Shown: piece after piece, positions 16,326 through 58,586 of the stretch
Position numbering within the stretch: position 1 is the first letter of the stretch
How the letters are laid out: every line of letters begins with the position of its first letter
From: a virus
Length of the DNA: 64,000 bases
Strand: one strand, 5' to 3'
Virus record (IMG/VR): IMGVR_UViG_3300045988_171772
Coordinates: 190,917 to 254,916 of that record
Made by a program: the position numbers and the translations under genes
Notes under the pieces: model-generated
What the model saw: the letters and a program-made list of their open reading frames with translations, nothing else
Told to the model about the DNA's origin: nothing
Database searches by the model: none

Positions 16326-18848
16326 TCACTCTTCTTCCGTTACAGATTTCGAGACAGTATCCTCATCTGCCGTTTCATCTCTGGCCTCCTCCGAAGATTC
16401 TTTCAGAGTGTCATCATGCATTTTGGAGGTGATCATAAACATCATCTCCTCGGTGATACTGCCAAGATCAAGTTTCTTTACTTCCTCTTGTTCGAAGACC
16501 CATTTCCAAGCTGCCTTCATCGGAGCTTCCTTGTCCGAGGAGACCACTTCATAGGTATCCATAAACTCATTATAGAGATCAAAGAGCTTGTCATAAATCG
16601 GTTTCCGAGAGAGACGATCCACCACAGTGAATCCATGGGTACGATACTGACGGATCGTATCCCGATAGACATACTCGTATTCTCCCTCTACATCAAAGTC
16701 AAGCTCAATGCCCATACCTTTGAGATAGGCAGCGAGAATGTCCACATTGATATTCGTGAAGTTTTCTTCTACCTTGAGCTTTTGGATGTCGAAGGGATCT
16801 CCCGATGCTTTGAGAATCCGATCCAGGGACTTTCTTGCAATGGGAGAAGAACGAGTGAAGAGGTTGTGCTCTGCAATGGTCAGACCCGACACAGCTGCAA
16901 AGAGGTTGTGCGTCTCACCAATCTTGATTGGAGACCGAGAATAGGGAGACAGATTGGATTTCTTGTCATTGCTCTTTGCAGGGACCTGTTTCTTATCAGT
17001 ACGACCAGTGGACCGAGCACTGAAATTCTTATTGGAAGTCTGCTTCAGAAGATACATATATTTGCTGCCGATGACAACCGGCCTCATGATCTTTTTACCT
17101 TTGATCCCAAAGAGATCAATGTAAGCATCATAGGGTTTGATATCCGGCCATTCATCATAGATCTTCCGAAGACAGTCATACCGCATTTTGGAATCCGGAC
17201 GTTTGACGATATAGAACCCATTCTCCTCGACATCCTGGATGAATTTCTTCTTTGCTTCTTCATCCACGATCTCAACCTGGATTCCATCCACATCAAATTT
17301 CTGATCCCAACTATTCCACATCTGGAGGAAGAAGTCATGCTGCTCCAGATTGAGGAGTTCGAGGAATCTCAAAATAACCTGCATCTTATCCTCGATGTCG
17401 GTCATCTTCTTGATCTTCCTCTGAAGTTGTTCTGCGATGAAGTTGATTTCTACTTCATAGAGCTGGTCTGTATTCAGACGACGAATCGAACCAGAGGAAT
17501 TCAGAAGAATGTCGGCGACAACCTTCTCTCCATCCTCGGTTACATAATAGGGCATATCACAGTCATCGACAATCGAGACCTCTTTGGCATTCTCAGTCAT
17601 GGTTTCCGGATTGGAATCCTCACTGAGCTGATCCACGATATTGTCAACGATGTGATTGAAAGACTCCGCAGGCTTCATGCCAAACTTCTCACCTGCATTG
17701 GTGATCTTGGAGATAATACCTTTATCACCATAACGACCTGTGAGTTTGAATCCTTCTTCCAGATCCACCACAGCAATCGTCTTGAAGATGACAACCAGAT
17801 TGGCGAAAGCTCTGTCTTTGTCTTTCCATTTGTATTCTTTATCGTTGAAGCGCTGATACTTTGCATTCAGATAGGATACCTGAGGAGTATAATGAGATCC
17901 AGAGGATTCAATCATCCTGCACATCTCAGACACTTGGGCAGCATACTGGCATTCCTGATCATAATACTTCTTGAGCTGCCGATAGAAGACATTTTCCGGG
18001 AAGGGATCGTCTCCATTGTAGCAGACATCAATGTCATAGATCAGAGAATTCTTCGGAGCAAAATATTCGGTATCGGTATCCGAGATGGTACGAAGTCTTT
18101 TATCCTGGAAGTCAAAGATGGCATGATTCAGATTCACACGGGCTACTGCACATACGGTGGAATTCTTGACATACTCACCCACTTCCGGGAAGCATTTGTA
18201 CTCACCAGGAGCACCATATACATTCTTGAGGATGTCGTTCGAGTTGACAGAGACCCGAACCTCATCCACTTCCACAGATTGGACATCCTTGGCCCATCCT
18301 CTGCGAAGTTTGATGGCATCTTCGATCGTGGCATTGTCCGTCACATACATGACACGGGCATTTTTGCCAATCCGATACTGCATATGCTCATCATAGGAAG
18401 TTGATTTATAGAGTACCTCATTCTGGACGGTATCTCCCTCTCGGAGAGAATCCATCTTGGAGGTATTGTAAGCGAATCCAAACTTTTCGGTCAGATTCTC
18501 AGCGATTGCCTTCTCGATCACATCCCAAGTATCGGTCTCTGCATTGTAGAGAAACATGGAATAGACATGTTTGCCTTCATACTTGGGGATGATCTTCTTA
18601 ACTTCCCACGTCCCTTCCATCTTCTTATAGGCATGAGAATACTTACCAAAGATATTCTCATAACCAGTCAGAATATGGGGGACATCGGGATTCATCATGG
18701 TAAGGAACTGCTTCTCATTCGAAGAAAACATGTAGAGACGGGATGAGTCAACGCCTTCGGGAAATCCTAACAAAGTAGGACCGAAAACTTTCTCCATTTT
18801 GTCTCCCCATTCTTCGTCCATTTTACGAAATTCGTCTGTGCCTGCCAT
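16326..18848 (-). CDS. rpoB: multisubunit RNA polymerase beta subunit, C-terminal half (split beta, 840 aa)
   Basis: Motifs match bacterial beta. SSRLYMFSSNEKQ ~ ANRALMGSNMQRQ. GRYGDKGIISKI ~ GRHGNKGVISKI. DILLNSSGSIRRLN ~ DIVLNPLGVPSRMN. FSARSTGR ~ HARSTGP. KIGETHNLFAAVSG ~ RFGEMEVWALEAYG. The N-terminal beta regions are absent. Confidence 0.85.
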   Translation of the reverse strand: MAGTDEFRKMDEEWGDKMEKVFGPTLLGFPEGVDSSRLYMFSSNEKQFLTMMNPDVPHILTGYENIFGKYSHAYKKMEGTWEVKKIIPKYEGKHVYSMFLYNAETDTWDVIEKAIAENLTEKFGFAYNTSKMDSLREGDTVQNEVLYKSTSYDEHMQYRIGKNARVMYVTDNATIEDAIKLRRGWAKDVQSVEVDEVRVSVNSNDILKNVYGAPGEYKCFPEVGEYVKNSTVCAVARVNLNHAIFDFQDKRLRTISDTDTEYFAPKNSLIYDIDVCYNGDDPFPENVFYRQLKKYYDQECQYAAQVSEMCRMIESSGSHYTPQVSYLNAKYQRFNDKEYKWKDKDRAFANLVVIFKTIAVVDLEEGFKLTGRYGDKGIISKITNAGEKFGMKPAESFNHIVDNIVDQLSEDSNPETMTENAKEVSIVDDCDMPYYVTEDGEKVVADILLNSSGSIRRLNTDQLYEVEINFIAEQLQRKIKKMTDIEDKMQVILRFLELLNLEQHDFFLQMWNSWDQKFDVDGIQVEIVDEEAKKKFIQDVEENGFYIVKRPDSKMRYDCLRKIYDEWPDIKPYDAYIDLFGIKGKKIMRPVVIGSKYMYLLKQTSNKNFSARSTGRTDKKQVPAKSNDKKSNLSPYSRSPIKIGETHNLFAAVSGLTIAEHNLFTRSSPIARKSLDRILKASGDPFDIQKLKVEENFTNINVDILAAYLKGMGIELDFDVEGEYEYVYRDTIRQYRTHGFTVVDRLSRKPIYDKLFDLYNEFMDTYEVVSSDKEAPMKAAWKWVFEQEEVKKLDLGSITEEMMFMITSKMHDDTLKESSEEARDETADEDTVSKSVTEEE

Positions 18849-24352: not shown

Positions 24353-25390
24353 TTAGACTTTATCCTTGGCTTTGTCGGCGGCTTCCTTGATGATCTCATT
24401 GATCTTATCAACATAACCAGACACGACATGAGCCAGATTCGGATATTCCGCCTCATCCAGATTCCGAAGATCGGCACGGAGTTCATAGACATTGTCATTG
24501 AACATCCGGCTGATCCTCTTGGTATACAAATCCAGCATCTGGGTCTGAATCTGCTCGGGCGCATCCTCAAGAACATCCAGAGCGAAGGTAGTCAGAGAAT
24601 TCCAAACCTTCTTCACTTCGGATCCCTTGAAGTCATTGATGCGATTCATACCCTCGAGAAGGATATAGGTCGCAACCTCAACCACATTGGATTCACCCAT
24701 AATCTGAGAGAAGAACCGACCCCACTTGACACGATCCATGTTCACTTCATAGGAATCGACGATCTCATAGATGTCGGTCAGTACCCGATTGGCATAGAAA
24801 CCAACCTGATACTTATTGATATACTTGGGATCCGGAACTCCCAGGAAAGCACTCCGGCAGATCTCCACCGGCATATTGGAGTCATACGAGACTCTCTTGG
24901 CTCTCCTCTTGATAATCTTCATGGCGGTCTTGATCAGATCCTTGAGATTATCATTATACTTATTGATGTGGATCATCTCTTCTCTGGCTTCAGACCGAGA
25001 GATGTTTCCTTTCTCCAGATCACTCCGAGTCCGATCTTCAAACTCTTGAGAGACCTGGATACCAGCCAGAGCAACAGTATGCAGGAAGGTTGCCACAGAC
25101 CGATCGAATTCATCATAGCCATTATAGGCTTCTTCTTCGATCGCATTAACAGTGGTCTTGATGACCTTCCGATGGGCCATCATGACATACATGTCCTTGG
25201 TATCCTTCTGCAACTTAGCACGATCGATCTCTTCCGGAGGATTGAAGAGCATCCTCATAAACTCTTCACTCTCCAGATAATAGACAATCGCTCTTTCTGC
25301 GGTAGACGCAGATACTCGTTTCTGAATGATGTCATCCAATAGGTCATTGAATGAATCAATCGTAAACGAATTTCGTTTGCGCAATCCCAT
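24353..25390 (-). CDS. hypothetical helical protein (345 aa) immediately downstream of the tubulin gene
   Basis: ORF-track ORF with AAGGAGGAA upstream and a class II promoter-like motif at 25423-25436. Confidence 0.8.
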   Translation of the reverse strand: MGLRKRNSFTIDSFNDLLDDIIQKRVSASTAERAIVYYLESEEFMRMLFNPPEEIDRAKLQKDTKDMYVMMAHRKVIKTTVNAIEEEAYNGYDEFDRSVATFLHTVALAGIQVSQEFEDRTRSDLEKGNISRSEAREEMIHINKYNDNLKDLIKTAMKIIKRRAKRVSYDSNMPVEICRSAFLGVPDPKYINKYQVGFYANRVLTDIYEIVDSYEVNMDRVKWGRFFSQIMGESNVVEVATYILLEGMNRINDFKGSEVKKVWNSLTTFALDVLEDAPEQIQTQMLDLYTKRISRMFNDNVYELRADLRNLDEAEYPNLAHVVSGYVDKINEIIKEAADKAKDKV

Positions 25391-25422
25391 AGGTTATTCC
25401 TCCTTTTGTATTTGGATTACTC

Positions 25423-25436
25423 TATAATGATATACG
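25423..25436 (-). promoter_or_regulatory. class II promoter-like motif
   Basis: On the minus strand, CGTATATCATTATA, 33 nt upstream of ATG 25390. Confidence 0.4.
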
Positions 25437-25439
25437 CAA

Positions 25440-26600
25440 TTAGAAAATATCAGGAATGTCAGTCAGCTTTGCCTTGTCATTCCGAACGGAAGAGACACCG
25501 AGAATTCGATTCCGGTTGGCATCATTCCGAGTGGACTTGATGGCAGAGAGATCTGCCAGCTCATCCGACACAGAAGCCGTATCAGTATTGTTGAGGGCTT
25601 CACATTCCTTGGCAATCTCAGTGCATTCCGAGATACGGTTGATAGGCTTGGACATACCAGACATGATGACAGAGAAGTCAGCACGCTGGGCATTCTCCAC
25701 CGTATAGTTGAGGAAGGTAGCCAGAGGACGACCGGTATATCCTTCCAACTCAGAGAAGTTCCCAGACTTGCAGGGGTCATTCGTCTGATCCGGAGTATTC
25801 ATGATGATACCGAGATTCCGAACGACACGATCCTTCTGAGGATCTACAGCCGCAGTATGCTCCAACATATCAATCATGATCGCCTGGGAAGATTTCTCAG
25901 ACAGATCATTCTTGGTGATGTTGGCACGATGGTTGATCATCATGTATCCTTCAGTGGAGAGCATGGTCAGCATGTCAGACTCATCGATCATCCCATAAGG
26001 AGTTTCCTTGAGATAATCACCACGAATGACACTGACACAATCTGCGATATACTCCGCAGTCTTCCGATAGGCTTCCTCCATCGGATCATCCTCAAAGGAA
26101 TGCAGATCAGAGAGCATGTAGGTCATATGCAGCTTGGGATTGGTGACCTCATTCATGCACTCAACGGTGTTGAACTGAGCCTGAGCAGACTCAGAATGCT
26201 TCGGAAGAATCCCGAAGAAGATGATGACCTTATTGGGATAGAAGGTCATCAGACGATTGACGAGAAGCGGACCAGCACCAGAGCCAGTGCCACCAGAAGT
26301 AGATGCTGCCACAATGACAACATCGGCATCCTCGATCACATCGGTAAAAGCAGGAGTCTGATTGAAGAGGCGTTCGAGTTCGATGGTCAGAAACCCTTTG
26401 GCATTCTGACGGTTCTTACCCGCACCACGCTTATTGCCGATGAGGAAGGACGGAATGGTCTTATCCAAGATCTTATCGTCCAGATCCTTCTGGCTCGAGT
26501 TGATGCAGAAGACGGTGTGACCCTTCTTGCGGGCCACTTCGACTGCCTGGCAACCAGCGTTGCCAATACCGATGAGTGAGACTTTCAAATTCGTATCCAT
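25440..26600 (-). CDS. phuZ: tubulin/FtsZ-superfamily GTPase (PhuZ/TubZ-like)
   Basis: G-box IGIGNAGCQAV. Tubulin signature STSGGTGSGAGP. KRGAGKNR is T3-loop-like, as in PhuZ (RGAGGNR). The C-terminus KLTDIPDIF resembles the FtsZ C-terminal peptide. Confidence 0.85.
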   Translation of the reverse strand: MDTNLKVSLIGIGNAGCQAVEVARKKGHTVFCINSSQKDLDDKILDKTIPSFLIGNKRGAGKNRQNAKGFLTIELERLFNQTPAFTDVIEDADVVIVAASTSGGTGSGAGPLLVNRLMTFYPNKVIIFFGILPKHSESAQAQFNTVECMNEVTNPKLHMTYMLSDLHSFEDDPMEEAYRKTAEYIADCVSVIRGDYLKETPYGMIDESDMLTMLSTEGYMMINHRANITKNDLSEKSSQAIMIDMLEHTAAVDPQKDRVVRNLGIIMNTPDQTNDPCKSGNFSELEGYTGRPLATFLNYTVENAQRADFSVIMSGMSKPINRISECTEIAKECEALNNTDTASVSDELADLSAIKSTRNDANRNRILGVSSVRNDKAKLTDIPDIF

Positions 26601-26637
26601 AATATAGATACACTCCTTTCTATTTTAGTATAAAAAT

Positions 26638-26650
26638 AATATATGTAAAA
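26638..26650 (-). promoter_or_regulatory. class I-like -10 element upstream of the tubulin gene
   Basis: On the minus strand, ACATATATTATTTTTA about 35 nt upstream of ATG 26600. The upstream TCGAAAA half is missing. Confidence 0.35.
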
Positions 26651-26875
26651 ATTCCGTTTCCTGAATCGTATAGGAGCCCTGAGATTAACAAGCTCTAAAG
26701 ATATGGTTTTCTTAGAAATACAAAAATGTAAGTACCGAAGAATACGATCTTCTCTGGTGCTTTCGGGCTATTCGGATTGTGTTAAGATCCGGACTAAGAT
26801 GGGCTGTCTTAGTTATTGGCTAATTCCTCCTTAGATGTTTTCTGACATTTCGATTTCCTCCTTTTAGATTTCCAT

Positions 26876-26931
26876 TCGGCAAAACCTCCCATAGGATTCC
26901 AAGCGGGTATACGGAATCCTATGGGAGGTTT
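26876..26931 (-). terminator. rho-independent terminator after 26943..27707
   Basis: 19-bp perfect stem AAACCTCCCATAGGATTCC/GGAATCCTATGGGAGGTTT followed by TTTTG on the minus strand. Confidence 0.75.
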
Positions 26932-26942
26932 TATTTGTTTCG

Positions 26943-27707
26943 TTAGATATAAGGACTATCCTTGTCAGTGAGAGCCTGACTTCTTTCTTCATTCTTGGGT
27001 TTTGGAAGAAGATTTCCACTGCCAATCAGATTGGTCTTAAACCCTTGCATGAGGAAGTAGATATTCAGTGTATTCAGAGAAGTCTTATTGGCCTTGTCAT
27101 TGGTAAGATCCTTCATGGATACATACCCATTCTTCGCAATGGCAGTGGCCATCTCGTTTCTGGCAACTTCATCATCCGCTCTGGGACCTAAGAATTCCTT
27201 CAGAGCATATTCAGCACCAGTGGCAAGAAGAGAGTAAGTCTCCACGTCAGAGTTACGACCATTCTTGTCATCACCAGTAACCTGACCAGTCAGAGGATTT
27301 CTCTGAGTATTGGATGTAGATCCGGAGTTCTTCTTCTCCAATGTCTGCATCATTCTCTTTTCATGGATGTAACCAACAGGAACCTTCTCAGGTGTCACGG
27401 TTACATTCTCAAGATCATGGTTGATATGAGGGAGATAGACAGTCTCATACAGAGGGACTCCCAGATATTTGGCAGCCTTCTCAATATTCTCATATTTGAT
27501 ATCTCTCATATACTCAACGATCTCAAGATAGAATTGCTGAGAATCATCTGCAAAGAATTTACGGATGTATTTGTCAAATTGATCATCGCTCATGGAAGAG
27601 AAAAACTTCTCGTACTTCTTCGCATTATCTCCCGAAGGATCCAAGAGATTAAAAGTATCCAGAAGCATCTTCATGAACTTCTTTCTCTTTTCCGCAATGG
27701 TAGCCAT
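26943..27707 (-). CDS. stand-alone homologue of the extreme C-terminus of RNAP beta (254 aa)
   Basis: VPVGYIHEKRMMQ ~ VGYMYMLKL. GSTSNTQRNPLTGQ ~ RSTGPYSLVTQQPLGG. DVETYSLLATGAEYALKEFLGPRADD ~ [27 protein letters not shown]. It is a second copy of the region already present in 16326..18848. Confidence 0.6.
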   Translation of the reverse strand: MATIAEKRKKFMKMLLDTFNLLDPSGDNAKKYEKFFSSMSDDQFDKYIRKFFADDSQQFYLEIVEYMRDIKYENIEKAAKYLGVPLYETVYLPHINHDLENVTVTPEKVPVGYIHEKRMMQTLEKKNSGSTSNTQRNPLTGQVTGDDKNGRNSDVETYSLLATGAEYALKEFLGPRADDEVARNEMATAIAKNGYVSMKDLTNDKANKTSLNTLNIYFLMQGFKTNLIGSGNLLPKPKNEERSQALTDKDSPYI

Positions 27708-39192: not shown

Positions 39193-42100
39193 TTAATAAG
39201 AGAAGGTAAACGTCATTTCGCCCATGAAGGGATCATTATGGTAGACATAATAGTCACGACCATTGATCGTAACCTCTGTCTTATTCTTTGTAAATTCGGA
39301 GGTGTTATCGAGCTGGTTCTGGTCCTTCACGGATTTGATTTCACCGTAGGACTTGGGAGCGCAGAAGTAGACGAACTGCGTGGTTGGATTGTTGACAGAA
39401 ACAACCTTGGTTCCCTTAGCGGAAGCCTGCGTTGTCTTGTCATCATCACCATTCACAAAGGTTTCGTCAATCACTGTCTCACCAGGAGCGGTGCCCCAGT
39501 AATAAGTCTCTACGAAGTTGAAGGAAGCAGTCTTGACAATAGACTCATTACCATCCAGATCCATGGCTCTAACGGTCAGATACTTATGGTTACTGGCCTG
39601 AGTCATCCGATACGGAGAATTTAGAGTCACTGTCTGCGCACCTTCCGCAAATCCATTCTCATAATCCTCACTATACAGCTCACCCAGCGCCGTATGGCTG
39701 TCAAAGTCAGAATCAACATCATAGACCTGATAGGACATGATCTTGTTTCCATGAGCATTCGACAGATTCACGCGAACGCCGGTAATATTCTGCGTAGTAG
39801 CAATACCGACAGTACCACCATTACGCGGAAGCATAGTAGCGGTCAGTTCGGGAGCTACATACGGATGCAGCAGCTTATAGATCAGATCGAGAATATCAAT
39901 GCCGCTAGAAGGCGGAACGTATCCTTCATTAATTCCTCCCACCGCAGCGGTAGTCGGAACCTGAGACGTATACTTGATGGAGACCTCTCCACCAGCACCC
40001 TGAATGATTTTCCAGGTACCATCCGAGGCCAGGAACTTGTTGGCATCTGCAGCAGCAGGAGCCGGAACCAGACCAACTTTACCAGGATTAGATCCATCGG
40101 TGCCAGTAAACGGATCGCTCACACCCGTTCCACCAGAAGGCAGATCGAGTTCATCCGAAGTTTCGTCACCCTTGGTCACAGTCAGCTTAGAACCAGACAC
40201 CGAGAGGCTCTTGACATAAGATGTCAAAGCGTTTCCACTGGTATCCTGAGTCGCAGCCTTCACTGTGGCTTCGGAAAGATCAGAAATGTCACTTGCGGTG
40301 TGACTATGTGTTGCGTTCGCCTTTCCACTCAGAGCGTCAGTCAGCCCTTCCACCTTACTCTGAGCCAGCGAACTTACCGTCATGATTCCTTCACCATCCA
40401 CCGTAATTTCGGTAGATGCTCTGACGATACCAGCTACCTCTGTTGTAGCAGGAGCATACGTAGTGTTGGTATCCACCGGCACAGCCCATGTACCATCGGC
40501 TTTCAGGAACTTGTCCTGATCACCAATAGCGGGTCCCGGAACCAGACCATCACTACCAGCACCCTCCGCAGAAGCGCCAGTAAATGCACTATAGGTAGCA
40601 GCTTCCGGCAGTTCGATCTCTGTCGAAGAGCTATCACCTTTAGTGATGACAATCTTCTTGTTATCTTCGGACTTTTTGACATCGGCCACATACGTGGTGA
40701 TGTCCTTTTCATTCTTATCTGTCGTAGCTTTAGCAGCTTCCGCCACAGAAGCAGCAGACAGATTCAGATCGGTAATATCAGAGACTGTGTGGGTATGCTC
40801 AGTATCAGCCTTAGCACCAAGAGCGGCAGTCAGTCCATTGACCTTCGCCTGCTCAATGGTACCAATACCCAGAGCACCATCCACACCAACAGTGACTTCG
40901 GTAGACGCTTTCACCAGACCCGGAGTGGAATCAGTGGCAACCACCAGATCGGAGGCTTCCAGCTTGTTATCCAGTGTAGTCTGGAGATCGGTAACGTCAC
41001 TAATGGCATGGGTATGCACACTAGCAGCTTTACCGCCCAGAGCGTCGGTCAAACCAGTCACTTTATCCTGCGACACAGCAGTGATGCTCATCGCACCATC
41101 GCCAGCCACAGCGATTTCAGAAGAAGCTTTAACGATACCAGCTGTTTCTTCAGTCGCAACCGCAACATCAGATCCAGCTTTGACAACCGCCCATGTACCG
41201 TCGGCCTTCAGGAATTTATCCTGATCACCCTGAGCAGGAGCGGGAACCAGACCAGCACCACCAGCAGCATCCGAAGACGCCCCAGTGAAGTTTGAATACA
41301 CGGTACCCTTAGGCAGCTCAATCTCAGAAGAAGAGTCATCACCCTTCTTCACAGTGATCTTATTCTCAGCGAAGGTCACATCAGCAACATAGGTCGTGAT
41401 GTCTTTGTCATTCTTGTCATTGGTAGCCTTACCAGCAGCAGCGACAGTCGCACTCGCAATGTCGGTGATCTGAGATACCGTATGAGTATGCTCAGAATCA
41501 GCCTTCGCTTCGAGAGCAGCGCTCAAGCCAGTAACACTAGCCATTTCATGAGTATGGACACTATTGGCTTTACCAGCCAGGGCAGTATCCAAACCAGTCA
41601 CATCGGCAGTTTCATGAGTGTGCTCAGCAGCAGCGGCACCAATCTTCGCCAGAGTGATGTCCAGAGTCTGGGCAGCCGAACCATCGAATGTCACGTTATT
41701 CTCAGCCTGCGTACCGCCGTTGAAAGTAACGCTCAAAGCGTTGGTGGTCTTACCAGCCTCTGCAACCACAGCAGAGTTCAGATCAGTGATATCCGCAGCC
41801 TTATGAGTATGCTCAGTGGCTGCCTTACCTGCCAGAGTAGTCTCCAGATCGGCGACTTTGCTCTGAGCAATGCTATCAACTGTCATGGTACCATCGACAC
41901 CAACCGAGATCTCGGCAGATGCCTTCACGACACCAGTATTGTCAGTCGTAGCAATCGGGAGAGTAGAGGCTGTCAGTTTCGCATCGAGCGCATCCTGCAG
42001 ACCATTGACATTAGCGATCTCATGGGTATGAGTAACATCAGCCTTCGCACCCAGAGCATCAACGAGGCCAGTGACCTTAGACTGCTCGATACTAGCAATG

Positions 42101-45100
42101 CTCATGGCACCATCTTCCGGAGCAACCGTGAATTCGGCACCAGGCTTCACAATGCCAGCCTTATCAGAAGTAGCGATGTCAACCGAGGTATCATCCAAGG
42201 TAACAGTAGCCCAGGTCCCATCCGACTTCAGGAACTTGTCCACATCGGCACTCACAGGAGCGGGAACCAGACCAGCTTTTCCATCGCCAGTACCGGTAGT
42301 ACCGGTAAAGTTGGAATACACGGTTTCCTTAGGCAGATCGATCTCACTAGAAGATCCATCACCCTTGGTAATCGTGATCTTCGAATTCGCCTGGGTAACA
42401 TCAGAGACATACTGAGTGATATCCTTACCATTCTTATCCTGAGTAGCCTTGGTGGCATTGCCAACCGTAGCATCAGCCAAAGAATCAGAATCCACCTTAG
42501 AAGCCAGAACTTCCGTCAGTCCACTGACCTTATCCTGAGCGATCGAAGCAACAGTGAGCGCTCCGTCTTCACCAACACTGATCTCAGAAGATCCTTTGAC
42601 AATACCAGTGGTGTCACCAGTGGCAATACCAGGCAGATCATCAGATTCCAGTTTGATATCCAGAGCATCCTGCAAACCAGTCACATCAGCGATCTCGTGA
42701 GTATGCTCACTAGCAGCCTTCCCATCAAGAGTCGTCTGCAGATCGGTGACATCACTAATTGCATGACTATGAATAGTGCTCGCCTTTCCACTCAGAGCAT
42801 CAGACAGCCCGTTTACGGAATCCATCTCATGAGTATGAGTAGCGGCAGCGGCTCCCACTTTGGCCAGGGTGATATCCAAGGTCGCAGCAGCAGAGCCATC
42901 GAAAGTGGTAACATTCTCTGGAGTGTTATCACCATTGAAGGTGACAGTCATAGCATTCGTGACCTTAGCAGCCTCAGCAACCTTTGCGGTGTTGAGATCA
43001 GTAATGTCAGCAATGTCATGGGTATGATCAACATCAGCCTTAGCAGCAATAGCAGCAGGCAGACCGTTGATCTGCTCAGCATCCAGAGTGATTTCAGGGA
43101 TGTCTTTCAAAGTATGGGTATGCGCAGCGTCAGCCTTGCCAGAAAGAGCCGCTGTGAGACCAGTGACTTTCTCCTGAGCAATCCCGGCGACAGTCATCAC
43201 ACCTTCACCATCCACCGCGATCTCAGAAGAGGATTTCACGAGACCAGCAGTTTCAGAAGTGGCGACATCGTAGGTGGTATTGGTATCGACCGGAGTGCCC
43301 CAAGTGCCATCGGCTTTCAGGAACTTGTCCTGATCACCCTGCGCAGGAGCAGGAACCAGTCCAGCTTCACCAGCTCCCTCAGCAGAAGCACCAGTGAAGT
43401 CTTTATAGACGGTACCAGCAGGCAGCTCCACATCGGAAGTGCTAGAGTCACCCTTCGCAATCTTCAGAGTATTACCCTGCAGAGTCACACCAGCAACATA
43501 CTCGGTGATGGGTTTACCATTGGTATCCTGAGAAGCAGCCTTAACGGTAGCTTCCGTCAGATCCTCGGTATCGACCTTACCAGCCAGAGTAGTTTCCAGA
43601 TCAGTGACATCCGCAATTGCGTGAGTATGGACACTAGCGGCTTTACCCGCAAGAGCAGTATCCAGACCGGTCACATCAGAAGTAGCATGAGTATGAGTGA
43701 CATTCGCCTTAGCATCCAGGAGACCCTGCAGATCAGTGATGTCGACAGCTTCATGCGTATGCTCAGTATCTGCCTTACCATCAAGGGCTGTGGTCACATC
43801 CGAGCTCTTGGCATAGTCACTCATATAACCGGGGATATTGGAATTGAAGGTGCTCTCAGTGGCAAGATTCACACGAATCGTTTCCGATCCGATGATCTTA
43901 TTTCCAGCATTGTACCATTCCACGGTCACATACCAACCGACATACTTGCCAGCGGTAGAAGAAGAACCGAGATAGGTCCAAGCAGAGTCACCAGCATCGT
44001 AGGTGGCAACCGGCAGTCTGGTCTCAACATAGTTGCGTCCCAGAGAATCCGGATCACCAAACGCAGTCACTTCGCCTTCCGTGATCTCATCTTTCAGGGC
44101 GATACGGTAATCCGTAGCATCCGCAGGAGCATAAGCACGAAGAGCCATGGTCACAGTATTCGGATCCTCTGCCCCATCCTGGGGAGCCCAGGGAGTCAGG
44201 GTAGAATACATGACACGAATCTCTTCATCACGATAAGAGACGCGAGTGTCTTCGAACAGGCCATCGGTAATCTCAAACTTGTTAGAAGCCTGAGACATGG
44301 TGGCAAAGGTATTCTCCAGGTTGGTAACCTTCGACTGCGGGATAGACGAAACCGTCATCACGCCTTCTCCGTCAACCTGGATCTCAGACGAAGCTTTCAC
44401 AAGACCAGCGATCTCGCTAGTCGCCACGTCGTAAGTCGTGTCATTGTCGACAGGAACCGCCCAAGTGCCATCGGCTTTCAGGAACTTGTCCTGATCGCCC
44501 TGCGCAGGAGCAGGAACCAGTCCTTCTTCACCAGCACCTTCCGCAGAAGCACCAGTAAAGGCATCATACACAGTTCCCTGAGGGAACTGAATCTCACTAG
44601 AAGATCCATCACCCTTGGTCACAGTGATCTTGGTATTGTCCGAGGTGACATCCGCCACATAGGTCGTGATGTCTTTGCCGTTTTTGTCAGAAGTGGCCTT
44701 ACCAGCTTCACCGACCACAGCAGAAGACAGAGTATCGGTCAGATCGGTAATGTCAGCAGCCTTATGGGTATGCTCGGCATCCGCCTTAGCACCCAGGGCA
44801 TCTGTCAAACCGGTGACATCATCCATCTCATGCGTGTGCTTAGTATTGGCTTTACCAGCCAGATCATCAGCAACAGCACTCTGGACAGCAGCATCGAAAT
44901 CAGTGATTTCAGACGCTTCATGTGTATGAACAGCAGCAGCCTTAGCATCCAACTGAGCCTGCACACCAGAGGTAACTCCAGTCATGTAGTTCAGTTCTTC
45001 CGCAGTGGCTGTAATGCCGGCAGCTTCCAGGTCAGCAGGAGGTGCATCAACCCAGGTGCCAGCACCAGACAGAACCTTATTCTGATCACCAGCCTTGGGA

Positions 45101-46635
45101 GCCGGAACCAGACCAAAGGTACCATTTTCGCTGTCAGTCGCACCTTCGAATTCAGAATAAGTACCTTCCGCACTGATGGGGACATTGATAGAAGTACCAT
45201 TGCCCTTGGTCACAGTGAGGGTAGTACCATCCGCAGAGATGCGATAGACATAATTAGAAATATTTTTGCCAGTGGAGTCCTTCACGGCAACATCCGCTTT
45301 GGCCACATTGGCATTCGCAATGTCAGAGATCTGATCAATGGTGTGATCATGGTCAGCCAACGCCTTCTCATCAAGAGCATCCTGAAGACCAGTGACATCG
45401 GCGATTTCATGGGTGTGAACGGCTTCGGCTTTACCCGCAACCGTAGTCTCCAATTCTTCGATCGATGCTTTGATCTCCTGATCAGACATGACGAGATTAT
45501 CGGTCATTTGCTTCAGACCAGTGACGTCATCGAAGCCATGAGTATGCTCGGCATTCGCCTTACCCTCAAGCTTCGTATTCAGATCTTTGACAGCAGTATC
45601 GACTTTTGTAGAGAGATCGCCCATAGCGGTATGCATTTCGGATCCCTGAGCATCGATCTTCCCCTCCAGATCCGTTTTCGCGGTCTCGAGATTCTGATCA
45701 GCTTCATCGACCCGGGCATCCACAGCGGCGATATCCTCGGGAATTCCGTTGATTTCCTCAGCAGTCAGAGTAACTCCGGCATCAGCAAGAGAAACAGCAG
45801 GCTTCTCCCAAGTGCCAGTAGCACTCAGGAACTTACCTGCATCTGCGCGACAAGGAGCCGGAACCAGACCAGCTTTACCATCCTCAGTGTCCGTTGCCGG
45901 AACCAGATTGTGAATATACTCTGTGGTCACAATATTACCGTTACCCTTGGTAACCGTAATCTTGTTATCCGAGATAGTCACATTGCGGACGTACTTGCCG
46001 ATCGGGGTGCCATTGGCATCCGTCTTCGCAGAGTCAGCTTCCTCAGCGTGTTCGGCGTTGCGGACACTCAGGGTATCCAGACCACTGATATCGTCGACGG
46101 TATGAGTATGCTCGGAGAGAGCTTTAGAATCCAAAGCATCCTGCAAACCTTCGACATCAGCAATCAGGTGAGAGTGATCCACATCGGCCTTTTTCTCCAG
46201 CTCAGCATTGGTGTCATCAGGAACATTGGGCAGTTTCAGAAGCTGGGCTCTAGCAACAGCGCTAGTGGTCACCTGAGCATTCTCATCGGTGATCACAACA
46301 CGGTTTTTCTGAAGCCCAACAATCCGGTCAGCCGTGATGTTGTTGACACCCAGGGTACCACTTTCGTCATTGTAATGAACCATGTTGTTTTCATCAGACG
46401 AAGTGATCTTGTCCTGCTGGCTTTCAATCCGAGTCAGCTGATTCTCCAAGTAATTCATGGTTACTGCAGAATCTGCGTCGGTGCCCTGTGCTACATGCAA
46501 TGATGCAGTGGATCCATCCTTGTTAAGAACGCGGAAAGAATCTGCATCAAACTTGATAGTAGCATGGACATTTTTATTTTTGGTACCAAAAGACATTTCC
46601 GTCTTCGTGGTACCGTCCAGATTGTTCATGACCAT
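39193..46635 (-). CDS. giant modular tail fibre protein (2480 aa)
   Basis: A single uninterrupted ORF. It holds 8 copies of GLVP[AG]P...KFL...GTW, 8 copies of AT.E.AG[IL]VK.S.E..V...G....., 24 copies of H.H...D[IV][TS][GD]L, and a non-repetitive ~300-aa C-terminal domain. Confidence 0.9.
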   Translation of the reverse strand: MVMNNLDGTTKTEMSFGTKNKNVHATIKFDADSFRVLNKDGSTASLHVAQGTDADSAVTMNYLENQLTRIESQQDKITSSDENNMVHYNDESGTLGVNNITADRIVGLQKNRVVITDENAQVTTSAVARAQLLKLPNVPDDTNAELEKKADVDHSHLIADVEGLQDALDSKALSEHTHTVDDISGLDTLSVRNAEHAEEADSAKTDANGTPIGKYVRNVTISDNKITVTKGNGNIVTTEYIHNLVPATDTEDGKAGLVPAPCRADAGKFLSATGTWEKPAVSLADAGVTLTAEEINGIPEDIAAVDARVDEADQNLETAKTDLEGKIDAQGSEMHTAMGDLSTKVDTAVKDLNTKLEGKANAEHTHGFDDVTGLKQMTDNLVMSDQEIKASIEELETTVAGKAEAVHTHEIADVTGLQDALDEKALADHDHTIDQISDIANANVAKADVAVKDSTGKNISNYVYRISADGTTLTVTKGNGTSINVPISAEGTYSEFEGATDSENGTFGLVPAPKAGDQNKVLSGAGTWVDAPPADLEAAGITATAEELNYMTGVTSGVQAQLDAKAAAVHTHEASEITDFDAAVQSAVADDLAGKANTKHTHEMDDVTGLTDALGAKADAEHTHKAADITDLTDTLSSAVVGEAGKATSDKNGKDITTYVADVTSDNTKITVTKGDGSSSEIQFPQGTVYDAFTGASAEGAGEEGLVPAPAQGDQDKFLKADGTWAVPVDNDTTYDVATSEIAGLVKASSEIQVDGEGVMTVSSIPQSKVTNLENTFATMSQASNKFEITDGLFEDTRVSYRDEEIRVMYSTLTPWAPQDGAEDPNTVTMALRAYAPADATDYRIALKDEITEGEVTAFGDPDSLGRNYVETRLPVATYDAGDSAWTYLGSSSTAGKYVGWYVTVEWYNAGNKIIGSETIRVNLATESTFNSNIPGYMSDYAKSSDVTTALDGKADTEHTHEAVDITDLQGLLDAKANVTHTHATSDVTGLDTALAGKAASVHTHAIADVTDLETTLAGKVDTEDLTEATVKAASQDTNGKPITEYVAGVTLQGNTLKIAKGDSSTSDVELPAGTVYKDFTGASAEGAGEAGLVPAPAQGDQDKFLKADGTWGTPVDTNTTYDVATSETAGLVKSSSEIAVDGEGVMTVAGIAQEKVTGLTAALSGKADAAHTHTLKDIPEITLDAEQINGLPAAIAAKADVDHTHDIADITDLNTAKVAEAAKVTNAMTVTFNGDNTPENVTTFDGSAAATLDITLAKVGAAAATHTHEMDSVNGLSDALSGKASTIHSHAISDVTDLQTTLDGKAASEHTHEIADVTGLQDALDIKLESDDLPGIATGDTTGIVKGSSEISVGEDGALTVASIAQDKVSGLTEVLASKVDSDSLADATVGNATKATQDKNGKDITQYVSDVTQANSKITITKGDGSSSEIDLPKETVYSNFTGTTGTGDGKAGLVPAPVSADVDKFLKSDGTWATVTLDDTSVDIATSDKAGIVKPGAEFTVAPEDGAMSIASIEQSKVTGLVDALGAKADVTHTHEIANVNGLQDALDAKLTASTLPIATTDNTGVVKASAEISVGVDGTMTVDSIAQSKVADLETTLAGKAATEHTHKAADITDLNSAVVAEAGKTTNALSVTFNGGTQAENNVTFDGSAAQTLDITLAKIGAAAAEHTHETADVTGLDTALAGKANSVHTHEMASVTGLSAALEAKADSEHTHTVSQITDIASATVAAAGKATNDKNDKDITTYVADVTFAENKITVKKGDDSSSEIELPKGTVYSNFTGASSDAAGGAGLVPAPAQGDQDKFLKADGTWAVVKAGSDVAVATEETAGIVKASSEIAVAGDGAMSITAVSQDKVTGLTDALGGKAASVHTHAISDVTDLQTTLDNKLEASDLVVATDSTPGLVKASTEVTVGVDGALGIGTIEQAKVNGLTAALGAKADTEHTHTVSDITDLNLSAASVAEAAKATTDKNEKDITTYVADVKKSEDNKKIVITKGDSSSTEIELPEAATYSAFTGASAEGAGSDGLVPGPAIGDQDKFLKADGTWAVPVDTNTTYAPATTEVAGIVRASTEITVDGEGIMTVSSLAQSKVEGLTDALSGKANATHSHTASDISDLSEATVKAATQDTSGNALTSYVKSLSVSGSKLTVTKGDETSDELDLPSGGTGVSDPFTGTDGSNPGKVGLVPAPAAADANKFLASDGTWKIIQGAGGEVSIKYTSQVPTTAAVGGINEGYVPPSSGIDILDLIYKLLHPYVAPELTATMLPRNGGTVGIATTQNITGVRVNLSNAHGNKIMSYQVYDVDSDFDSHTALGELYSEDYENGFAEGAQTVTLNSPYRMTQASNHKYLTVRAMDLDGNESIVKTASFNFVETYYWGTAPGETVIDETFVNGDDDKTTQASAKGTKVVSVNNPTTQFVYFCAPKSYGEIKSVKDQNQLDNTSEFTKNKTEVTINGRDYYVYHNDPFMGEMTFTFSY

Positions 46636-56052: not shown

Positions 56053-56403
56053 TTATTCCTCCGGATTTCTGAGTGTGATTAAGAATATTCCATGAAAGAC
56101 CTGAGTCTCCAAATCCTTCATGGATGCATCCTGAATCTTAAATGTGACATCAAAAGAAGATTTTGGAATTACCTGATGAATCCGAGTGCGGATAACAGGG
56201 ATTGCTGTTTCGATCATCTTCTTCTGAATATTAAGAGCTCTTCTTTCACTTCCAATCTCTACAGAGTTGAATCCTATTTCCAATCCTTTGATGATACATT
56301 GAAGATCATTGAGAATTTTACCCATATCGGAGAAGTCAGGACTCAGAGTGCTATTGGAAGTGAATCCATTGAATCCTATATGAAATTGCACTTCATACTT
56401 CAT
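56053..56403 (-). CDS. hypothetical protein (116 aa)
   Basis: Its start overlaps the stop of the PPK-like gene, indicating coupling. Confidence 0.75.
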   Translation of the reverse strand: MKYEVQFHIGFNGFTSNSTLSPDFSDMGKILNDLQCIIKGLEIGFNSVEIGSERRALNIQKKMIETAIPVIRTRIHQVIPKSSFDVTFKIQDASMKDLETQVFHGIFLITLRNPEE

Positions 56404-58586
56404 TATCTACGAACCCTCCATTTCAGAGACAGTTTATCCAACTGATAGTTGCAGCTATCCCAAATCTTGTTGATATATTCATCAATGGGAACACCTTCTC
56501 CGATATCCACCATATTATCAAAGATATTGAATCTCTGATATACATTGGTGTGCTTCCCGAGAGGAAGCTTCAGGAGAATCTCCAATCTCCTCTTCATGTT
56601 TCTCTTCATGAGATCTGCAGAGGAGATAAAGACTTCATCTCCGATCATATAGAGACGACTATGCTCAAGATATTTGGATACCTTGGATCTTGCCTCCATA
56701 TTCTTGGATACAGGAGAGAAGACAATGGAAGTACGAATCATGAATCGAGCATTTCCAGAATAGTTTGGAATCACAAAGCTATCCAGGAAAGAAGGATCTG
56801 TGAAGTTATTGCACTTCAGGAAGATATCCTTATCGTCACTAACGGCAACTCTCATGGATTCTTTGAGTTTTCCTTTGGCAGAGATGGGAGTGATGAAGAG
56901 ACTCCGATTGTTGAAATCCATCCACCAGTCATATCCAGATTTGAAATCTCCTCCACTAAAGAGAATTTTAAAGAGATATAGAAGCTCCAGATTGATCTTT
57001 TCTTCCGTGGTGATATAATGAAGATCCACATACTGACCCATCGTCTTGGTATTGAAGTTCCCTGTGGAGATCATCGAAAGAAGAGAATTGTCATCATAGA
57101 TGATCTGCCAAGCTTTCATGTGAACTTTCAATCCATGGCAGGAGTGCTTGACATGAACACCAGCTTCTTTCAATTCCTTGATAATCTTCTGATTTGCCTT
57201 CTCATCTCCACGAGCAGTGGGTTCGATATAAGCATATACGAAGACTCCCTTTCGGACAAGATCTTCGAGTCTTTCAACGAGATACCGATTCTCTCCAAGA
57301 CGATAGAGAGAAATGAAGACAGTCCGGATCTTTTTCTTCTGAAGATTCTCCAGAGGATGGAAGAGAAATCTCCAAGGAACTCCGGGAGTCTCAAAGAGTC
57401 TGGATTTATTCGGATAACTGCTGATCAGACTATCATACCAATTTGTATATGTCAGATTGGTATTGACCTTATTCTCCACAGACTTTTCCTTCATCTTGTC
57501 AATGAGATTCTTGAAGATGGAATCATCCGGAAGGGTGGATCCATCATTCTTACTGATGAAGAGAATCGTGTTGGGAATGTTATGGACAAACTCATCCACA
57601 GCAAGAATCTCCGGATAAGGTACCTGAAAGAATGTAGCATTCCCAAAGGAAGGACGTTTCTTCAGAGTATATTTGGAGATCTCCTCCGAATAAGAAAACT
57701 GACTGGGACGAGGATAGGAAATAACTGCAGAATATCTCATGATCTGATTGCTGGTATTGACGACCAGATCATAGTCAGCATCCTGACCAACTTCATCCAC
57801 TCGTGCATTGGGAATGCATCTTGCAAAGGTTGGAAGAGTGAAATAATTCGGATTCTCAAAAGACTGAGATTTCTTCAGATAGTCTTCCTTCCATTCCGAT
57901 ACATGGCTCCGGAAGTATTCCGATAGATCAAAGTCTTCTTCCACCAGAGGAAGATCGATGCAATCCTCAATAGGAGCACCATCTTTGATCATACCAGCAC
58001 CAGGGAAGAACTTCTTCACTTCGTAGAAATACCGAAGATCTACACCAGGCTCGTTATGGTGAGCGACGCTATCATAATAGAGCTTCGGATACTTGTTAAA
58101 TCCTTCTCTATTCTTGTCGGTAGAGGGATCCATTCTCTTTGTATTCCAATCATAGGATGTATGAATGGGATAGAATGCAAAGAGACCTTTCTCATGAACC
58201 TTGGCGAAGTTTCTAAAGACGTAGGGATACGTCTTTTGCCAGGTATCATAATACTTCTTGATGAAGCTGTGGAGTTCGATCGCCATATAGGTAAGAAACT
58301 TCTGGACATGGATATCGATCTCCGATTTATATTTCGGATTTGTGATCTTGGGATAATTGACAGAGAGGAATTCCATCAGATTATCCATGGCGATTTTCGT
58401 ATAATTCAGATAGGATGCAGGATCATCACTGACATGCATCCTTCCATACTCATAGACTCTGACAGCAAAGTCTATGGTGCCTGTGTAACGATCAATAGCA
58501 AGAGCTCCCTCTTCCGATACATGACGTTGCGTTTCATTATCGAAATACTCCTGAATATCCATGATCGTTTTGCTCATTTCATCCAT
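56403..58586 (-). CDS. ppk: polyphosphate kinase 1 (PPK1)-like protein: canonical C1/C2 catalytic domains with a divergent ~370-aa N-terminus
   Basis: FLFHPLENL ~ LLHHPYESF (phospho-His motif). ISLYRLGENRYLVERLEDLVRKGVFVYAYIEPTARGDEKANQKIIKELKEAGVHVKHSCHGLKVHMKA ~ TLYR..DSPIV.AL..AA..GK.V.V.VELKARFDEEANI.WA..LEEAGVHV.YG..GLKTHAK. STGNFNTKTMGQYVDL ~ GTGNYN.KTA..YTD. KYLEHSRLYMIGDEVFISSADLMKRNMKRRLE ~ RFLEHSRIY.F....YIGSADWM.RNL.RRVE. Confidence 0.8.
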   Translation of the reverse strand: MDEMSKTIMDIQEYFDNETQRHVSEEGALAIDRYTGTIDFAVRVYEYGRMHVSDDPASYLNYTKIAMDNLMEFLSVNYPKITNPKYKSEIDIHVQKFLTYMAIELHSFIKKYYDTWQKTYPYVFRNFAKVHEKGLFAFYPIHTSYDWNTKRMDPSTDKNREGFNKYPKLYYDSVAHHNEPGVDLRYFYEVKKFFPGAGMIKDGAPIEDCIDLPLVEEDFDLSEYFRSHVSEWKEDYLKKSQSFENPNYFTLPTFARCIPNARVDEVGQDADYDLVVNTSNQIMRYSAVISYPRPSQFSYSEEISKYTLKKRPSFGNATFFQVPYPEILAVDEFVHNIPNTILFISKNDGSTLPDDSIFKNLIDKMKEKSVENKVNTNLTYTNWYDSLISSYPNKSRLFETPGVPWRFLFHPLENLQKKKIRTVFISLYRLGENRYLVERLEDLVRKGVFVYAYIEPTARGDEKANQKIIKELKEAGVHVKHSCHGLKVHMKAWQIIYDDNSLLSMISTGNFNTKTMGQYVDLHYITTEEKINLELLYLFKILFSGGDFKSGYDWWMDFNNRSLFITPISAKGKLKESMRVAVSDDKDIFLKCNNFTDPSFLDSFVIPNYSGNARFMIRTSIVFSPVSKNMEARSKVSKYLEHSRLYMIGDEVFISSADLMKRNMKRRLEILLKLPLGKHTNVYQRFNIFDNMVDIGEGVPIDEYINKIWDSCNYQLDKLSLKWRVRR

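Follow-up and report, generated by a model that had tools for sequence, protein, structure and literature searches.

A c-st-TubZ-like tubulin from an uncultivated gut jumbo phage and the probable role of its conserved C-terminal tip

Does the C-terminal tip of a tubulin encoded by a gut jumbo phage address the division machinery of the host, or does it belong to the phage's own filament system? Phage tubulins organise infection within the bacterial cell, where PhuZ brings the phage nucleus to the centre and prophage plasmids are partitioned by TubZ, and the anchoring and regulation of their filaments are only partly known. The tubulin considered here is encoded in a stretch of 64,000 nucleotides (hereafter the window; positions 190,917 to 254,916 of IMG/VR virus record IMGVR_UViG_3300045988_171772), which is a piece of an uncultivated gut jumbo phage of ~266 kb. 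Its open reading frame ends in ...KAKLTDIPDIF*, and the original prediction, made from the letters of the window, read this end as an FtsZ-type peptide that could be directed at the host and that does not resemble the acidic tail of PhuZ. The family placement of the protein, its architecture, the conservation of its tip and the alignment of that tip with the end of the TubZ of Clostridium phage c-st are direct observations, and they lead to a different answer. By analogy with characterised relatives, we consider it probable that the gene encodes a GTP-dependent, filament-forming tubulin of the c-st TubZ kind, whose tip would serve both the assembly of the filament and the docking of phage partners.

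Membership in the tubulin/FtsZ superfamily, which had been proposed from the motif GGTGSGAGP, held at the level of sequence and of predicted fold. The Pfam family Tubulin (PF00091) matched the open reading frame with 54.1 bits (cut-off 33), and an AlphaFold2 (AF2) model built on 38 homologs gave a two-domain fold (predicted local distance difference test, pLDDT, 85.9; predicted template modelling score, pTM, 0.86), for which Foldseek returned E-values of 1e-23 to 1e-17 against TubZ, CetZ, and FtsZ. The parts of the gene and of its product are as follows:

25440..26600, minus strand: c-st-TubZ-like phage tubulin gene of the tubulin/FtsZ superfamily, 386 amino acids plus stop, ATG start
25590..26600, minus strand: globular core, residues 1-337, with GTPase domain, helix H7, activation domain, and helix H11 (AF2 pLDDT mostly >90, and DSSP)
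26409..26429, minus strand: RGAGKNR loop, residues 58-64 (by alignment; G59 and R64 invariant in 38 homologs)
26268..26294, minus strand: T4 tubulin signature GGTGSGAGP, residues 103-111 (38 homologs)
25974..25994, minus strand: T7 catalytic loop GMIDESD, residues 203-209 (D206 invariant and D209 at least 90% conserved in 38 homologs)
25590-25643, minus strand: C-terminal helix H11, residues 320-337 (AF2 model, DSSP)
25461..25589, minus strand: linker, disordered and poorly conserved, residues 338-380 (pLDDT <50 over 337-370)
25497..25508, minus strand: second short linker motif R-I-L-G, residues 365-368 (conservation in the close clade)
25443..25460, minus strand: conserved tail tip DIPDIF, residues 381-386 (conservation, and alignment with the c-st TubZ tip DINDFF)

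Of the superfamily's G-box/T4 pattern GGGTG[ST]G, the letters GGTGSG are present at residues 103-108. Across the 38 homologs, G103, G104, S107, and P111 of the signature are invariant and T105, G106, and G108 are conserved in at least 90%, with T105 aligning with T100 of c-st TubZ. In the T7 loop, D209 aligns with E200 of c-st TubZ, the residue that was changed in the published E200A mutant (PMC5322520). Because the loop is kept and E200 has its counterpart in D209, the window tubulin is expected to polymerise and to hydrolyse GTP. The arrangement at the C-terminus is also as anticipated, since a low-complexity linker of ~43 residues (~40 had been predicted), over which the model loses confidence, leads to the terminal peptide.

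Among known families, the protein lies closest to c-st TubZ (CST189; PDB entries 3v3t and 4xcq), a type III partition tubulin. Among PHROGs, phrog_17961 matched best (2e-15), ahead of the PhuZ family phrog_4733 (2e-11); phrog_17961 is the family of c-st TubZ, with a value of 4e-249 for c-st TubZ itself. A search of PDB sequences ranked c-st TubZ first (4xcq and 3v3t, ~1e-14), followed by CetZ, PhuZ (3e-7), and FtsZ, and the best Foldseek matches to the AF2 model were the same two entries (E 1e-23, template modelling (TM) score 0.84 on the target). When the window tubulin family was compared by phmmer, gp138 of Bacillus phage G reached 5e-33 and c-st TubZ 4e-24, with PhuZ of phage phiKZ (gp39) at only 5e-6. 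FtsZ proper was rejected, as TIGR00065 gives 44.2 bits against a curated cut-off of 295.2. The protein is not FtsZ and probably not PhuZ proper, and its nearest known relative is c-st TubZ, with which it shares the core, helix H11, and a flexible tail of ~50-60 residues, at an identity of only ~20%. The earlier assignment to phage tubulins of the TubZ or PhuZ kind is borne out by the PHROG, PDB sequence, and Foldseek comparisons, and of the three families that it had proposed to align, TubZ in its c-st form came out nearest, PhuZ second, and FtsZ below its cut-off. Its description of the RGAGKNR loop as PhuZ-like does not stand: the counterparts are EGCGKERK in c-st TubZ, EGAGRNR in phage G, and IGMGKDR in phiKZ, so that the loop is common to c-st TubZ and phage G and is not specific to PhuZ.

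The family is large and the lineage common. A homolog search yielded 45 homologs (numbered with a P) of 99% to 29% identity, many of them on contigs of 190-300 kb, and a profile search of 1.84 billion representatives returned 351 clusters at E <= 1e-30 (clusters of 50% identity), which makes this a large family. The cluster of at least 90% identity around the homolog P0001 has 154 members on many independent contigs of ~265-276 kb; the phage lineage that it marks is therefore widespread in public metagenomes. A widespread lineage of uncultivated gut jumbo phages is thus now placed in a large c-st-TubZ-like family.

The tip itself finds its match within this family. The C-terminus of c-st TubZ is EIDINDFFSKYM (in a longer stretch, ...EKEIDINDFFSKYM), and in a joint alignment its tip shares columns with EINLDDIFSKYLK of P0038, DFDLEDIFNRYK of P0039, and LTDIPDIF of the window protein. 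Column by column, the c-st tip (DINDFFSKYM) and the window tip pair D with D, I with I, N with P, D with D, and FF with IF. The idea that the window peptide stands apart from phage-tubulin tails finds no support in this alignment. Judged by the aligned columns, the family-wide tip pattern D-phi-x-D-phi-phi (phi, a hydrophobic residue) is already FtsZ-like, and only the proline is new.

We found the tip to be conserved to a degree that sets it apart from its surroundings. DIPDIF is kept in P0001-P0019 (at least 52% identity), except for P0006 and P0007, and each of 14 sequences with 52-76% identity keeps D384 and F386. Among relatives in that identity range, the mean fraction of the majority residue is 0.90 in the tail, 0.72 in the core, and 0.50 in the linker, and only 9.4% of core 6-mers match the conservation of the tail. 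Conservation of the tail among related phage tubulins had been named beforehand as one observation on which the prediction would turn, and on this point it was right. An alignment of 38 sequences, the most distant of them 28% identical, gives 2.67 bits per column for the last six residues and 1.3-1.6 for the linker. The 15 variants of the cluster of at least 90% identity agree, at low power, with variable positions numbering 0/6 in the tail, 4/43 in the linker, and 11/337 in the core. Everything that follows the R322 column, which lies in H11, measures between 43 and 92 residues across the family (median 61). On these comparisons the tail tip is under strong selection, and it is the tip rather than the linker that appears as the selected element. 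The tip motif occurs once among the 393 stop-to-stop segments of the window and does not recur on other window proteins, as a docking motif shared between phage proteins would.

It could be argued that the last six residues serve no specific purpose and resemble other tails by chance. Chance matches to short motifs do occur, and peptide searches with the tail (described below) gave no significant match; set against this, the tail exceeds 90% of core hexamers in conservation next to a linker that varies freely, and a related C-terminal motif is found in most of the family members inspected. The conservation data already contradict such an explanation, and we give it hardly any credence.

About 15 residues before the tip lies a further motif, R/K-I-L/I-G, in a linker that is otherwise variable. 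I366 and G368 of its window form, R-I-L-G, are 93% conserved in the close clade, which is weaker than the tip, and distant clade members carry KILG, KLLG, or IIMG at this place. The tail may make a second contact through this motif.

Where, then, does the proline come from? We classified the tips of 174 full-length family members by regular expressions and found a c-st-like tip, D-L-D-D-I-F-x-K-Y, in 81/174 and a proline-containing (Pro-type) tip in 32/174; the remaining tips are mostly other acidic-plus-hydrophobic endings, e.g., DLSFLD, DDDGIF, and DIDDDIFG. In a bootstrapped neighbour-joining tree of core residues 1-336, all 32 Pro-type tails fall inside one clade of 61 sequences (92/100 bootstrap), with c-st TubZ and phage G outside it. 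The proline is missing from 29 of these 61 members, including P0006 and P0007, which are 62-64% identical to the window protein and end in DFSDIF and DFEDLF. What is kept throughout the clade is the order acidic, hydrophobic, any residue, acidic, hydrophobic, hydrophobic. Since the Pro-type tails are confined to a single clade, nearly half of whose members lack the proline, the tree and the survey indicate that the Pro-type tip is a derived, clade-restricted form of the TubZ tip, from which the proline was lost repeatedly. The FtsZ-like look of the window tail would accordingly come from an ancestral TubZ tip, D-phi-x-D-phi-phi, which shares the acidic and hydrophobic register, together with the proline added in one clade.

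The likeness to FtsZ nevertheless deserves a closer comparison. The FtsZ peptide is where division proteins dock; the tail of TubZ and PhuZ also builds the filament. The peptide of Escherichia coli FtsZ is KEPDYLDIPAFLR followed by KQAD, with a DIPAFLR core (PMC5125937; PMC6657595), and that of Bacillus subtilis is DIPTFLR followed by NRNKRG (PMC6657595). In the peptide of Corynebacterium glutamicum, DDLDVPSFLQ, D436, P438, and F440 are strictly conserved at the interface with SepF (PMC7118173). Counted from the proline (P), the 32 Pro-type tails are composed as follows:

P-2: Asp or Glu in 27/32
P-1: Ile, Val, Leu, or Met in 32/32
P+1: Asp in 31/32 (Ala, Thr, or Ser in the documented FtsZs)
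P+2: Ile 18, Phe 11, Tyr 1, Asp 2 (n = 32)
P+3: Phe 20, Leu 12 (n = 32)

If these tails were mimics of the FtsZ peptide, the Pro-type tip would dock on the host proteins that read it (FtsA, SepF, ZipA, ZapD, EzrA, MinC, SlmA), a prospect that we consider improbable; the outcome that it would entail, in which phage filaments are anchored to the membrane or divisome, or the readers are titrated and division is blocked, seems to us equally so. The architecture is indeed alike, in that a core is followed by a disordered linker and a short terminal peptide, and the register D-phi-P-x-phi-phi agrees with DIPAFLR, DIPTFLR, and DDLDVPSFLQ at P-2 (acidic), at P-1 (aliphatic or Met), and at P+3, where all 32 tails have Phe or Leu. 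Nine tails have Phe or Tyr at P+2 as well, a few tails carry a basic extension, e.g., KKVPDFLKSRTKR, and FtsZ-peptide binders accept several peptide conformations (PMC7118173). Yet every matching position except the proline is inherited from the TubZ-type tip, and the proline is dispensable within the clade, being absent even from close relatives, whereas in B. subtilis FtsZ the P372A substitution abolishes the binding of SepF (PMC3418248). Asp at P+1, the residue that the phage tails conserve best, is foreign to the FtsZ peptides. The pattern [DE]-phi-P-x-[FY] is satisfied by only 9/32 Pro-type tails, and the window tail, D-I-P-D-I-F, does not make up the strict D-x-P-x-F contacts of FtsZ: Asp and Pro are present, and Ile stands where FtsZ has its strictly conserved Phe. 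The FtsZ peptide is followed by a variable extension, which window-type tails usually lack; 18/32 Pro-type tails stop exactly at P+3.

Searches bore little on this point. Neither the 23-residue tail nor a profile built from 25 Pro-type tails retrieved any PDB chain sequence at E <= 10, and thus no FtsZ chain, although with such short queries these searches had no statistical power and are uninformative either way. Domains of FtsA, SepF, ZipA, ZapD, EzrA, and MinC were not found in the 30 window proteins scanned. Of the original FtsZ comparison, the register (acidic, hydrophobic, Pro, any residue, hydrophobic, hydrophobic) stands, and the Asp at P+1 and the Ile in place of Phe speak against it; the step from there to a host-directed peptide finds no support, with the proline confined to one clade and absent from 29/61 of its members. 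The likeness in register is real, but it is weak evidence for the hijacking of host division, because most of it is inherited from the TubZ family and one proline was added. Cousins whose tips are KKVPDFLKSRTKR, EVPDFLKSSL, and DDIPDFL are more FtsZ-like than the window protein, and they keep the idea of mimicry alive at low probability. We accordingly think it unlikely that this clade of gut jumbo phages remodelled the TubZ tip to [DE]-phi-P-D-[FI]-[LF] as an FtsZ-peptide mimic for anchoring or division arrest; should FtsZ partners of the host nevertheless turn out to bind the Pro-type tip, this would amount to a new viral route into the bacterial divisome. In a weaker variant, the TubZ tip and the FtsZ peptide could share one ancestral docking motif, D-phi-x-x-phi-phi.

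What homologous tips are known to do points elsewhere. The C-tail of c-st TubZ, ~50 residues long, is unstructured; proteins truncated there lack significant GTPase activity and no longer form helical filaments, and removal of the last eight residues (NDFFSKYM, in CbTubZ350) dramatically changes filament morphology. In the filament, contacts of the c-st tip with upper subunits have been proposed, and TubY and the TubR-centromere complex bind the tip as well (PMC5322520). Polymerisation of PhuZ (phiKZ, 201phi2-1) depends on its tail, which buries ~1000 square angstroms of the next subunit (PMC3678025), and the tail of a Bacillus plasmid TubZ is critical for assembly and recruits TubR-tubC (PMC7762940). 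By homology with c-st TubZ and PhuZ, the DIPDIF tip and the upstream RILG would reach along the protofilament and dock on a neighbouring subunit, and this docking would set the helical, GTPase-competent form of the filament. The tip would double as a landing pad for phage-encoded partners, the best candidate being an orphan all-alpha protein encoded beside the tubulin, since TubR and TubY were not found. Along the tail of the AF2 model, pLDDT rises from <50 to ~68 at residues 371-380 and is low again in the last three residues, a rise that hints at, and is weakly consistent with, a preferred docking site for the tail on the tubulin body. By analogy with PhuZ, the filament would then presumably serve to place phage DNA, capsids, or the replication compartment within the cell.

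The surroundings of the gene, all on the minus strand, bring this candidate partner into view:

26881..26932, minus strand: perfect 20-nucleotide inverted repeat with a 12-nucleotide loop, right after the gene for a fragment of RNA polymerase (RNAP) beta
26649-26622, minus strand: sigma-70-like promoter match TTTACA-16-TAAAAT (consensus match only)
26620-26613, minus strand: Shine-Dalgarno site GAAAGGAG, 12 nucleotides before the tubulin ATG (consensus match only)
24353..25390, minus strand: orphan all-alpha gene, 345 amino acids, directly downstream of the tubulin; candidate tubulin partner

The inverted repeat is a likely terminator that would separate the RNAP-beta-fragment gene from the transcription unit of the tubulin; with a loop of more than 8 nucleotides, it escaped a simple terminator scan. 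The order of genes, namely topoisomerase II, RNAP beta fragment, tubulin, a gene for ~290-360 residues and, further on, a RecA-like gene and RNAP beta, recurs in four distant lineages. In the same position in these lineages (L007-L010) are homologs of the neighbour (BLASTP E 2e-12 to 2e-62), despite tubulins that are only 31-33% identical; one of these homologs stands beside the P0040 tubulin, whose tail is of the c-st type. The AF2 model of the neighbour has a pLDDT of 88.5 and 16 helices. It resembled no PDB fold in earnest (best TM score 0.32), its only structural relatives being two uncharacterised gut 'Myoviridae sp.' proteins, and its sequence had no match in Pfam, PHROG, NCBIfam, or PDB sequences. 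TubY was considered and rejected as its identity: c-st TubY is a MerR-type helix-turn-helix protein with a coiled coil, and hhalign of the neighbour profile against TubY gave a probability of 0.2%. The conserved position suggests that the neighbour may be a partner of the tubulin, and possibly a new tubulin-associated protein.

Such a neighbour raises the possibility that the tail is an adaptor and nothing else, with no part in polymerisation, and docks a phage partner or cargo such as the neighbour protein, the replication compartment, or capsids. The synteny of the neighbour gene in all five lineages examined and its confident all-alpha fold would fit such a function, as would the recruitment of the TubR-centromere complex and of TubY by the tail in plasmid and phage TubZ systems. 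The neighbour is, however, kept beside differing tails (Pro-type, DDGIF, DLSFL, and c-st-like in P0040), with no visible co-variation of tail and neighbour, and its putative interaction with the tubulin is drawn from synteny. Moreover, the tail also affects assembly in every TubZ or PhuZ that has been characterised. We hold a purely adaptor role to be a minority possibility, somewhat doubtful though less so than mimicry of FtsZ.

A tail that serves both self-assembly and partner docking is the ordinary reading and the first in line for testing, and several points weigh against it. Nine of the 32 Pro-type tails (e.g., EVPDFLKSSL and DDIPDFL) do match the strictly conserved D-x-P-x-F contacts of FtsZ. 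The tip has changed with respect to c-st TubZ, in that the S-K-Y extension is lost and a proline and a nearly invariant Asp are present, so that the binding mode or the partner may have changed too, and most Pro-type tails stop at a free carboxylate. Neither TubR nor TubY was found when all window open reading frames were searched by phmmer with the c-st queries (a weak test for TubR), and the interval 25200-27100 holds no centromere iterons. Tail-to-subunit docking of the window protein is proposed from homology and an AF2 monomer, and synteny is the sole ground on which the neighbour is proposed as partner.

The comparison with characterised systems sharpens these differences. In phage c-st, TubZ acts with TubR, a centromere, and TubY in the partition of a plasmid-like prophage; TubR and TubY were not found among the window open reading frames, nor iterons in 25200-27100. 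The window tubulin gene instead lies in a block of replication and transcription genes, in a jumbo phage that encodes a multisubunit RNAP, and its upstream gene is the RNAP beta fragment, compared to tubR in TubZRC. With PhuZ (gp59 of 201phi2-1, gp39 of phiKZ), it has in common that it is a jumbo-phage tubulin accompanied by split RNAP genes and ends in an acidic-plus-hydrophobic tail, and its cellular role is probably analogous to that of PhuZ. PhuZ is nevertheless the remoter sequence family, and its tail of ~20 residues has another layout, with an 'acidic knuckle' (LDVDD...GLVFD; phiKZ tail, LDVDDQATSSGLVFD), unlike the window tail of 49 residues after H11 (64 after R322). Phage G, also a very large phage, has in gp138 an uncharacterised FtsZ/tubulin-like GTPase that is 22% identical over 83% of the query (E 8e-3, tblastn against GenBank phages), with a different tail (...SLSDRLTRFTK) and other neighbours, outside the Pro-type clade. 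What is new here is a TubZ-like tubulin in lytic-type gut jumbo phages, for which TubR and TubY were not found, with a truncated, proline-containing tip and a conserved orphan neighbour. As the selected element of the tail, the conserved tip offers a precise target for deletion and peptide-binding work.

The phage that carries the gene is known from metagenomes. A near-identical locus lies on a metagenomic scaffold of 265,718 bp, and relatives come from gut metagenomes (a Hadza human gut sample and a contig of a rabbit-gut metagenome-assembled genome, MAG). GenBank phages gave no megablast match to the DNA and no tblastn match to the protein at E <= 1e-5; at E <= 10, phage G was the sole match over most of the query, accompanied by short matches to c-st-like phages. 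A genome scan with the single window protein had no match, and one with a closer alignment found one tubulin, 57% identical and with the same DIPDIF end, on the 69-kb contig CANQJI010000002.1 (L011). This jumbo-phage contig is binned in a rabbit-gut 'Akkermansia sp.' MAG, which is either a hint at the host or a binning artefact, and such binning is unreliable for a phage contig.

Other genes of the window include the split multisubunit RNAP beta, topoisomerase II subunits, a UvsX-like recombinase, and baseplate and head-fibre domains. RNAP beta is divided over separate genes at 16326-18848 and 26943-27707, both on the minus strand (PHROGs 3295 and 3233), an arrangement shared with phiKZ-like and AR9-like jumbo phages. 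Chimallin was not found by phmmer with phiKZ gp54 among window open reading frames of at least 60 residues, in 64 kb of the ~266-kb genome, and the nuclear-shell family phrog_4795 had no match among the ~23 larger window open reading frames scanned. At 56403-58586 on the minus strand, a protein of 727 residues with polyphosphate kinase C-terminal domains 1 and 2 and a phospholipase-D-like (PLD-like) domain (Pfam 3e-24 and 6e-15) is, by its domains, a phage-encoded enzyme like polyphosphate kinase 1 (PPK1). A tail-fibre-like protein of 2480 residues, with many repeated stretches of tail-fibre PHROGs, is encoded at 39193-46635 on the minus strand, in a region with a GC fraction of 0.49-0.52 compared to ~0.42 elsewhere. 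Opposite this gene runs an antisense open reading frame of 1673 residues (41482-46503, plus strand), which is probably a by-product of the repeat composition.

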